Made by a program: the position numbers and the translations under genes. 325 nt of DNA. It comes from Escherichia coli. Its GTDB lineage: Bacteria > Pseudomonadota > Gammaproteobacteria > Enterobacterales > Enterobacteriaceae. Positions 127 through 187 of this stretch are shown piece by piece. Numbering within the stretch: position 1 is the first letter of the stretch; each line of letters begins with the position of its first letter. The notes below the pieces were generated by a model. The model was not told the origin of the DNA, searched no databases, and was given only the letters and a program-made list of their open reading frames with translations. The stretch is taken from NCBI RefSeq assembly GCF_003334385.1, contig NZ_QOWN01000204.1. One strand, 5' to 3'.

Positions 127-142
127 AGCCAGTTAACATTTT
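127..142 (+). promoter_or_regulatory. Site II: solo copy of the motif (AGCCAGTTAACATTTT), no inverted partner within 20 bp
   Basis: 127-139 agccagttaacat is identical to 195-207 (13 bp). 132-141 gttaacattt is identical to 109-118 in the right arm of site I. It lies 23 bp (GTTAAC centre to centre) downstream of that arm. Confidence 0.45.
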
Positions 143-187
143 TTCCGCACAACAAACTGAATAATAAAGATAAAAACCGCAAAAATG
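139..187. promoter_or_regulatory. AT-rich spacer (about 29% GC) with A/T tracts between sites II and III; possible promoter, intrinsic bend or unwinding element (unresolved)
   Basis: 14 G/C in 49 bp by direct count. T6 at 139-144, AAA at 154-156 and 166-168, A5 at 172-176 and 181-185. Weak -10-like hexamers: AATAAT at 160-165 on plus, TATTAT on minus (166-161). No -35 partner at 16-18 bp spacing on either strand. Confidence 0.3.

Follow-up and report, generated by a model that had tools for sequence, protein, structure and literature searches.

The AT-rich spacer at positions 139 to 187 of the analysed stretch (325 nt of Escherichia coli DNA, here called the window) is very probably part of a phage packaging signal, the cos site of lambdoid prophages of the Stx type. 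On balance, we regard it as an architectural spacer in the cosB-like half of this cos site, which would most likely be bent by IHF; for the more specific claim of an IHF-type bend between putative small-terminase binding repeats, the arguments are evenly balanced. Among the functions proposed for this segment in a first-pass annotation made from the letters alone, a bend element between binding sites has become the best supported one.

Of 5426 complete E. coli genomes, 1277 contain an identical or nearly identical site; the window also matches 93 phage records, including those of Stx1a, Stx2a and Stx2c converting phages and of BP-4795, 2851, 1717 and YYZ-2008. In all of these, it separates an HNH endonuclease gene from the gene of the small terminase (terS). 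The phage genes lie on the minus strand of the window in the order HNH - gap - terS - terL, followed by a protease/capsid fusion gene. The first-pass annotation had assumed a setting in which a regulated promoter would be expected; the locus is instead a cos site, located between HNH and terS in the late operon of a prophage. The gene ends within the window are:

1 to 17, minus strand: 5' end of terS (terminase small subunit), from RefSeq and GenBank annotation of identical loci
17 to 15, minus strand: GTG start codon of terS, at +230 from the cut, preceded by the Shine-Dalgarno sequence AGGAGG at 25 to 20
307 to 325, minus strand: 3' end of the HNH endonuclease gene, from annotation, with the stop codon TAA at 309 to 307

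The N-terminus of TerS matches Pfam Terminase_2 (E 2e-8), which is its only Pfam match; the protein is assigned to PHROG 641, small terminase (E 2e-68), and weakly matches the DNA-binding domain of SF6 G1P in the PDB. The HNH protein, with matches in the PDB and PHROGs, is a small nuclease typical of the HNH type, and the sole PDB sequence match of TerL is the HK97 TerL 6Z6D (E 1.1e-9, residues 84-534). The window belongs to lambdoid Stx-type prophages of the HNH-dependent, 3'-overhang cos group of BP-4795, 2851, 1717 and Lys8385Vzw.

A second version of the site occurs outside these phages. E. coli CH427 contains a 9.4-kb island between yljB/cspD and clpS, which encodes an integrase, an HTH regulator, an Icd-like protein, a RepA-family helicase and a protease/capsid fusion, and which carries at its 3' end an 80.6%-identical copy of window positions 90-263. 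The same gene order, with cos sites at the 3' end, has been described for Gram-negative PICIs (PMC10111431). This PICI-type version is present in about 50 of the 5426 E. coli genomes and in five IMG/VR contigs. The cos module is the only part that the CH427 island has in common with the phage, and no terminase gene is located downstream of it; the repeats and the spacer therefore belong to the packaging signal and not to the expression of terS. The island capsid protein shows no similarity to the capsid protein of the helper phage, and the capsid gene was thus dropped as a link between the two. From the shared cos, and from this only, we infer that the island probably depends on these phages as helpers. 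In copying the cos of a helper it would resemble SaPIbov5 with HNH-type cos phages (PMC5052747) and Gram-negative PICIs such as EcCICFT073 and 11capE (PMC6739421, PMC10111431). Whereas the E. coli PICIs described so far have lambda- or phi80-type cos sites, the CH427 island carries the HNH-type, 3'-overhang cos of Stx-type phages.

The position of the cut is known from PhageTerm analysis of the Stx1 phage Lys8385Vzw (MT225100), which classed it as a cos phage whose 3' cohesive ends have the sequence CGCCCCCCCT, located at the end of the genome (PMC7946995). The mapped ends of this 97%-identical phage fall at window positions 246/247 with a 10-nt 3' overhang, a mapping that is taken from the literature on that phage and not on exactly the sequence of the window. 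The MT225100 record starts with CTCACGCAGAGAAAAAATTCCCG..., which equals the minus strand read downward from window position 246, and ends with ...GGACACCGCCCCCCCT, corresponding to window 262 to 247; the overhang is therefore window 247-256. The packaged genome begins at position 246 and proceeds towards terS, and its mapped ends are 60 nt away from the spacer. For this phage group the location of the cut was thus already known, from a single PhageTerm result. The cut and the elements close to it are:

228 to 235, minus strand: A6TT tract, at +12 to +19 from the cut, kept in phage, PICI and all distant relatives
247 to 256, minus strand: cosN, the 10-nt 3' cohesive end located by PhageTerm, CGCGCCCCCT here and CGCCCCCCCT in Lys8385Vzw
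291 to 298, minus strand: G8 run, read as C8 on the plus strand; lies some 40 nt upstream of the cut and is conserved in the phage, in the PICI copy and in each of the 13 distant relatives

The block around cosN (228-263) is kept across genera and is identical at 36 of 36 positions in the PICI copy. For the A6TT tract, which resembles lambda I2 in its position, the wedge model predicts a static bend of 26-29 degrees in phage and PICI alike. The G8 run is a possible upstream cos sub-site; in PPompW prophages it is the insertion point of ISEc20.

The spacer sits between GTTAACAT repeats, as the first-pass annotation had recognized. A search for ATGTTAACNG with at most one mismatch found five copies in the window, compared to 0.04 expected, and none of 200 shuffled sequences reached five. 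All five copies are located on the terS side of the cut, and they make up three sites, designated A, B and C in order of their distance from it:

92 to 101 (plus), 107 to 116 (minus), 130 to 139 (minus), 198 to 207 (minus) and 206 to 215 (plus): the five ATGTTAACNG copies from the motif search with at most one mismatch
198 to 215, both strands: site A, the perfect 18-bp palindrome CAGTTAACATGTTAACTG, formed by two overlapping motif copies, at +32 to +49 from the cut
130 to 141, minus strand: site B, AAATGTTAACTG, a single motif copy, at +106 to +117 from the cut
88 to 120, both strands: site C, the inverted repeat GCAAATGTTAAC-N9-GTTAACATTTGC with perfect 12-nt arms and two motif copies, at +127 to +159 from the cut

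All five repeats are kept in the PICI copy, in which 17 of the 18 positions of site A and 11 of the 12 positions of site B are retained; among 46 distinct phage-type variants only one of the 12 columns of site B is polymorphic. The GTTAAC cores of site C are unchanged in the PICI-type copy, and the homology between phage and satellite stops just past this site. The centre of site A is about 40 bp from the cut, and sites A and B are separated by 72 bp from centre to centre (centres 206.5 and 134.5). Two IMG/VR contigs (L028 and L053) with other TTAACATGTTAAC arrays are unrelated low-GC sequences.

Between sites A and B, the DNA is AT-rich. The GC content is 28.6% in 139-187 and 54.7% in the remaining window, the lowest-GC 49-mer of the window is 138-186, and in 8.3 kb of surrounding phage DNA only 0.6% of all 49-nt windows are as AT-rich as the spacer, so that the low GC content noted in the first-pass annotation is well founded. 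The following features are located here:

139 to 187: AT-rich spacer, at +60 to +108 from the cut, inside the 60-nt gap (140-199) between sites A and B
150 to 176, minus strand: near-invariant 27-nt core of the spacer, TTTTTATCTTTATTATTCAGTTTGTTG
150 to 162, minus strand: IHF-like core ATTCAGTTTGTTG, with one mismatch to the IHF consensus WATCARNNNNTTR
172 to 176, minus strand: T5 tract, 9 nt upstream of ATTCAGTTTGTTG
133 to 207, minus strand: 24-codon open reading frame MLTGCPGIFAVFIFIIQFVVRKKC, opened by the ancestral ATG of terS and rejected as a gene

The spacer is fixed in its length and conserved in part of its sequence. Of 122 loci, 118 have exactly 60 nt between A and B, and the other four are one base longer or shorter within homopolymer runs. 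The PICI spacer, with only 68% identity (32% divergence) more diverged than any other part of the cos module, is nevertheless exactly 60 nt long and aligns to the window without indels, while one indel is found just outside of it. Within the spacer, 2 of 27 columns of the core (150-176) are polymorphic among the 46 phage-type variants, compared to 14 of 29 columns in the rest (Fisher p 0.0009, to be read as indicative rather than exact because these variants are related to each other). Between PICI and phage, 6 of 27 positions differ in the core and 13 of 29 in the flanks, a contrast that is not significant (p 0.09).

The core contains the IHF-like sequence, and a match to the IHF consensus by itself is at chance level (1 compared to 0.36 expected; 62 of 200 shuffled sequences have at least one). 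The combination of an IHF core with an A/T tract was reached in 74 of 5000 cases when the whole window was shuffled and in 157 of 5000 when only the AT-rich part was (1.5-3%), with the criterion framed post hoc. When compared to the H' site of lambda attP, 11 of 13 core positions match (ggTTTTTatctttattATTCAGTTTGTTG here, atAAAAAAgcattgctTATCAATTTGTTG in H'), and the A/T tract is found in the same register (ataaaaaagcattgctTATCAATTTGTTG in H', ggtttttatctttattATTCAGTTTGTTG here). The validated IHF site I1 in lambda cosB (bp 65-90) itself has one to two mismatches to the consensus and is no better match than the sequence in the window. In the PICI copy, the 13-mer has three changes, two of them at unspecified N positions, while the third adds a second mismatch to the consensus; ATTCA, GTTG and the T-tract are retained. 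The bend centre implied by this arrangement (around position 167) would be located roughly midway between the centres of A and B.

Curvature prediction, which the first-pass annotation had suggested as a check, gave a divided answer. With a wedge model, which gave modest to moderate peaks near I2 and I1 for lambda cos as control, an intrinsic curvature with a peak of about 30 degrees is predicted at 177-185, resulting from two A5 tracts 9 nt apart; 16 of 300 shuffles of the segment reach this value. The same peak is missing in the PICI copy (3-10 degrees only). Phage and PICI share the bends that the model predicts around site B and at the cut-proximal A6 tract. The phage has a marginal periodicity of AA/TT near 10 bp (0.06 after correction for the periods tried), and PICI has none. 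Because neither the predicted bend nor the phasing is kept in PICI, intrinsic curvature alone does not explain the conservation of the spacer and was rejected as the sole explanation. A bend induced by a protein would fit the data better.

Distant relatives of these phages show what the cos site might have looked like before the spacer was present. We compared the Salmonella phage FSL SP-016, whose TerS is 54% identical by MAFFT (48.6% by tblastn), and 12 enterobacterial prophages from Phytobacter, Kluyvera, Kosakonia, Serratia, Citrobacter, Pantoea, Rouxiella, Erwinia, Proteus and Buttiauxella, whose TerS proteins are 37-48% identical. The cut-site block GGACACCGC.CCCCCTCTCACGC.CAGAAAAAAT is present in FSL SP-016 and in all 12 prophages, and segment 18-197, which includes the spacer and three further motif copies, is absent in every one of them. 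In FSL SP-016 and 11 of the 12 prophages, terS starts at an ATG inside GTAAACATGTTAACAG, approximately 45 nt past the cut and after the Shine-Dalgarno sequence GGAGGG. The exception is a Proteus prophage (L017), in which the start of terS reads ATGCTAACAG and a GTTAAC is located about 30 nt upstream. Segment 18-197 is thus specific to the E. coli Stx-type lineage, and the central ATG of site A (207-205, minus strand) is the ancestral start codon of terS. According to this comparison, an insertion of about 180 nt seems to have parted the ancestral start codon (207-205) from terS, for which a new GTG and a new AGGAGG are now used; its first codons are now GTGCTGACA, without GTTAAC. Intermediate lineages with a part of the 180-nt insert were not found in the phage collection, in the E. 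coli genomes or in a scan of species-representative genomes, and TerS identities are either at least 92% or at most 54%.

Taken together, these observations suggest the following model. The terminase would cut at window 247-256, and TerS would bind, by its N-terminal helix-turn-helix domain, the ATGTTAAC repeats downstream of the cut at A (198-215), B (130-141) and C (88-120). If the 60-nt AT-rich gap between A and B were bent, both sites could be held by one terminase assembly, which would position the nuclease on cosN. The bend would most likely be imposed by host IHF on the 27-nt core (150-176), aided by the phased A-tracts, and the role of the spacer would then be that of I1 between R3 and R2 in lambda cosB. 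We infer the binding of TerS to the repeats, the binding of IHF and the bend itself from the arrangement of sites and from their conservation. Against a bent spacer stands the finding that relatives with the same cosN and a homologous TerS lack segment 18-197; this terminase family can therefore do without such a spacer. In addition, since TerS belongs to Terminase_2 and not to the gpNu1 type, a lambda-style docking of a dimer onto bent DNA would be an analogy only.

A spacer of fixed length can be explained without any host factor. In this case, the AT-rich DNA would be a passive, deformable linker that wraps around an oligomeric TerS ring, so that peripheral helix-turn-helix domains reach A, B and C, similar to G1P of SPP1 or SF6 on pacL. 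The Terminase_2 family of TerS with its weak matches to the SF6 G1P DNA-binding domain, the fixed length, the marginal phasing of AA/TT at about 10 bp together with the predicted curvature, and an IHF motif that is not significant alone are all compatible with such a linker. It would not need a near-invariant 27-nt core beside variable flanks, however, and PICI loses the phasing and the intrinsic bend but keeps ATTCA...GTTG and the T-tract; we consider a passive linker unlikely, while still giving it some weight. It is also conceivable that the spacer is a functionless remnant of the lineage-specific insertion of about 180 nt and that only the repeats matter. This would account for the absence of 18-197 from all distant relatives and for the fact that the spacer is the part of the cos module in which phage and PICI differ most. 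A remnant would hardly be expected to remain free of indels across 32% divergence when an indel is present just outside, to have a core that is significantly less polymorphic than its flanks, or to be retained by PICI, which shares only packaging signals with the phage, and we judge this explanation distinctly improbable. Both readings agree less well than an IHF-bent spacer with an invariant core combined with an invariant length.

The statement of the first-pass annotation that the spacer lacks a canonical sigma-70 promoter was borne out: -35 and -10 hexamers 16-18 bp apart are not present in 139-187, a promoter scan did not return any site inside it, and AATAAT at 160-165 on the plus strand (TATTAT opposite, on the minus strand) indeed has no -35 partner. 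The TTAACA pointed out earlier is present at 110-115, but contrary to the first description it is followed at a suitable distance by a -10-like hexamer, TAACAT at 134-139. This pair (plus strand, 18-nt spacing, 9 of 12 positions) is the sole match of the promoter scan in the window and is composed of two copies of the repeat motif; because 0.3 such matches are expected per window by chance, it carries no weight. Lambdoid late genes are read through from an upstream late promoter, and no promoter is therefore expected in the spacer; its absence is unsurprising in DNA that does not serve as a promoter. An activator-dependent or non-sigma-70 promoter, serving terS and the late genes or directed antisense towards HNH, might still be imagined in AT-rich DNA that contains a TATTAT with five of six matches and is flanked by palindromic repeats able to bind a regulator. 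Apart from the missing -35/-10 pair and the textbook transcription of the late operon from its upstream promoter, PICI has retained the spacer although no terminase gene follows it, and distant relatives express terS without it, which leaves such a promoter very improbable. Highly improbable is also that the T-rich strand encodes a hydrophobic micro-protein of 24 amino acids starting at the ancestral start codon of terS. The reading frame MLTGCPGIFAVFIFIIQFVVRKKC is intact in most phage-type variants and is opened by this very ATG, but the ancestral Shine-Dalgarno sequence GGAGGG has decayed to CAGGG, the PICI copy stops at codon 5 (ATGTTAACTGCCTGA), and there are non-synonymous changes near the 3' end, in the C-terminal part, as well as rare frameshifting homopolymer variants; the frame from 207 to 133 was rejected as a gene on account of its disruption in PICI and the non-synonymous variation among phage variants. 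The suggestion of a DNA-unwinding element in an origin-like locus with iterons, finally, drew on repeated motifs that flank an AT-rich tract, and it is effectively refuted by context. DnaA-box matches (1 compared to 0.78 expected) and matches to an unwinding 13-mer (2 compared to 1.2 expected) are at chance level, the genes adjoining the spacer are packaging genes with no replication or initiator gene among them, and the locus is a packaging module with mapped genome ends. A search of 1.2 kb against Rfam gave no match at E values up to 1, and, when folded as RNA, the intergenic transcript scores no better than shuffled sequences (z -0.59).

The architecture that we propose for the spacer, an IHF-bent segment between terminase sites, is best known from phage lambda. 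Its cos site is arranged as cosN - I2 (an AT-rich static bend, bp 18-50) - R3 - I1 (an IHF site with an intrinsic bend) - R2 - R1, and when IHF bends I1, R3 and R2 come to face each other for the small terminase (PMC4856287); according to the title of a reference cited there, lambda terminase cuts 47 +/- 2 bp from an R site. Both systems have in common that all (putative) small-terminase repeats are located on the terS side of the cut, the first of them about 40-47 bp away, that an A-tract is found between the cut and the first repeat and an AT-rich, IHF or IHF-like segment between the first and the second, and that the small terminase gene starts approximately 190-230 bp from the cut. In contrast to lambda with its 12-nt 5' overhangs, its winged-HTH TerS gpNu1 and no HNH protein, the phages analyzed here have 10-nt 3' overhangs, a Terminase_2 TerS and an adjacent HNH gene; the GTTAAC repeats are based on palindromes, A and B are 72 bp apart from centre to centre, and there is no sequence homology. 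Binding of IHF is proven for lambda and predicted here. The site thus appears to parallel lambda cosB in its layout by analogy; because its TerS belongs to Terminase_2 and its overhang is 3' and 10 nt long, it is not a member of the lambda cosB family.

By gene order, TerL homology and type of ends, the site belongs to the HK97-like HNH/3'-cos class. HK97-like phages have their cos in the gap between HNH and terS, and their ends have 10-nt 3' overhangs (PMC9410871, PMC11331095); HK97 itself encodes the HNH protein gp74 and has a single 15-bp TerS site at +15 to +29 with a 9-bp A-tract (PMC11331095, PMC9410871). The order HNH - cos - terS - terL, a homologous TerL, the 10-nt 3' overhang and an A-tract followed by C:G pairs (at +12 to +23) are shared with our phages. 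In contrast to HK97, for which a single TerS site and neither a repeat array nor an IHF site have been described, there are five repeats and a long spacer in the window. A small terminase of the HK97 type (P27 family) was not found, with Terminase_2 as the only Pfam family of TerS and no PDB match to HK97 gp1, and recognition by an HK97-type TerS was rejected because the TerS family differs. The Terminase_2 fold family of TerS is shared with the pac phages SPP1 and SF6. SPP1 is a headful (pac) phage with TerS sites that bracket the cut on both sides; the small terminase G1P binds repeated boxes in pacL and pacR, on DNA that is bent. Its multiple TerS boxes are separated by bendable DNA, as summarized in PMC4856287. 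Unlike in SPP1, the cut in our phages is sequence-specific and generates cohesive ends, and all repeats are located on one side. For this cos, a limited literature search did not turn up any account of the terminase-binding side with its repeats, its fixed spacer and the possible IHF site. The spacer is an element of an ordinary kind, hitherto uncharacterized in this phage group.

Prophages with this cos site are present in about a quarter of the complete E. coli genomes, and they include Stx1, Stx2a and Stx2c converting phages; the site therefore governs the packaging, and hence the spread, of Shiga-toxin genes and of the satellites that copy it. If the proposed architecture is confirmed, it would show that the design of lambda cosB has evolved a second time, independently, and would provide a defined 215-bp packaging signal, usable in cosmid or transduction assays or for predicting helper-satellite pairs. 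Most notable is that a lambda-like cosB apparently arose recently and by convergence, through an insertion that displaced the start of terS, and was captured by a PICI-type element. We tentatively suggest, as a possibility to which we would not yet commit ourselves, that the Stx-type lineage built a lambda-like, IHF-assisted, multi-site cosB anew: an insertion of about 180 nt might have detached the palindrome with the ancestral start codon from terS, followed by multiplication of the palindrome motif to five copies and the emergence of a host-factor bend site between them, and a PICI-type satellite might then have captured the module. If true, this would be a case of convergent cos architecture in an unrelated terminase family (a Terminase_2 TerS, HNH, 3' ends), and one whose origin could be dated.

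Comparison of positions 198-215 of the window, the palindrome of site A, with positions ~1190-1215 of loci L009-L021 and 2495-2512 of L006, from 12 enterobacterial prophages and Salmonella phage FSL SP-016, revealed that terS opens with ATG TTA ACA in 12 of these 13 distant relatives, and that this sequence lies within an imperfect palindrome, GT(A/T)AACATGTTAAC. Codons 1 to 3 of terS are invariant in the same 12 relatives, the exception being the Proteus prophage (L017), which has CTA instead and carries GTTAAC 30 nt upstream. Taken together with the synonymous-site variation found in later terS codons, this invariance suggests a constraint on the start region at the DNA level. 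The start palindrome is probably the ancestral terminase recognition site; alternatively, the pattern may come from start regions being preferentially AU-rich.

Three further elements lie in the surrounding cos region:

186-195, a GC-rich palindrome of 10 bp (TGCCCGGGCA) at one end of the AT-rich spacer

228-235, an A6TT tract at +12 to +19 from the cos cut

291-298, ~40 nt upstream of the cut, a G8 run on the phage strand that reads C8 on the plus strand

Since the GC-rich palindrome is polymorphic among the phages and absent from the cos copy of the phage-inducible chromosomal island (PICI)-like element of E. coli CH427, it is probably non-functional. The A-tract, followed by C:G pairs, is kept in every relative, and the A6TT tract is predicted to be bent by 26-29 degrees in phage and PICI copy alike. 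Its position is similar to that of lambda I2 and of the A-tract TerS site (+15 to +29) in HK97. The G8 run is kept in the phage, the PICI copy and all 13 distant relatives despite variable surroundings, and it could represent an upstream cos sub-site, either cosQ-like or bound by the HNH protein or TerL.

Two IS insertions were observed in the cos region. In PPompW prophages, ISEc20 (IS110 family) sits exactly within the C8/G8 run (window ~292-295; L147, 2892-4350); these prophages are devoid of the upstream HNH and lysis genes and retain cosN, the repeats and terS. In E. coli Ec-U3, ISCro1 (IS66 family) interrupts repeat site C (window ~104; L023, 1-1500), and the terS side of this locus is gone. 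Arrays of three to five TTAACATGTTAAC repeats were also seen in non-coding DNA of two unrelated, low-GC viral contigs from IMG/VR (L028, 2690-2850; L053, 510-600), where they may serve other phages as packaging or replication sites.

The PICI-like island of E. coli CH427 (9.4 kb; L144, 9962-19300) is located between yljB/cspD and clpS and encodes an integrase, an HTH regulator, an Icd-like protein and a RepA helicase, as well as a protease/capsid fusion that is not related to the capsid of the phage. At its 3' end the island has its own version of the HNH-type 3'-overhang cos module (L022, 2501-2675), and this version is present in ~50 of 5426 E. coli genomes. Whereas the cos sites of E. coli PICIs described in the papers examined are of the lambda or phi80 type, that of the CH427 island is of the HNH-type 3'-overhang kind.
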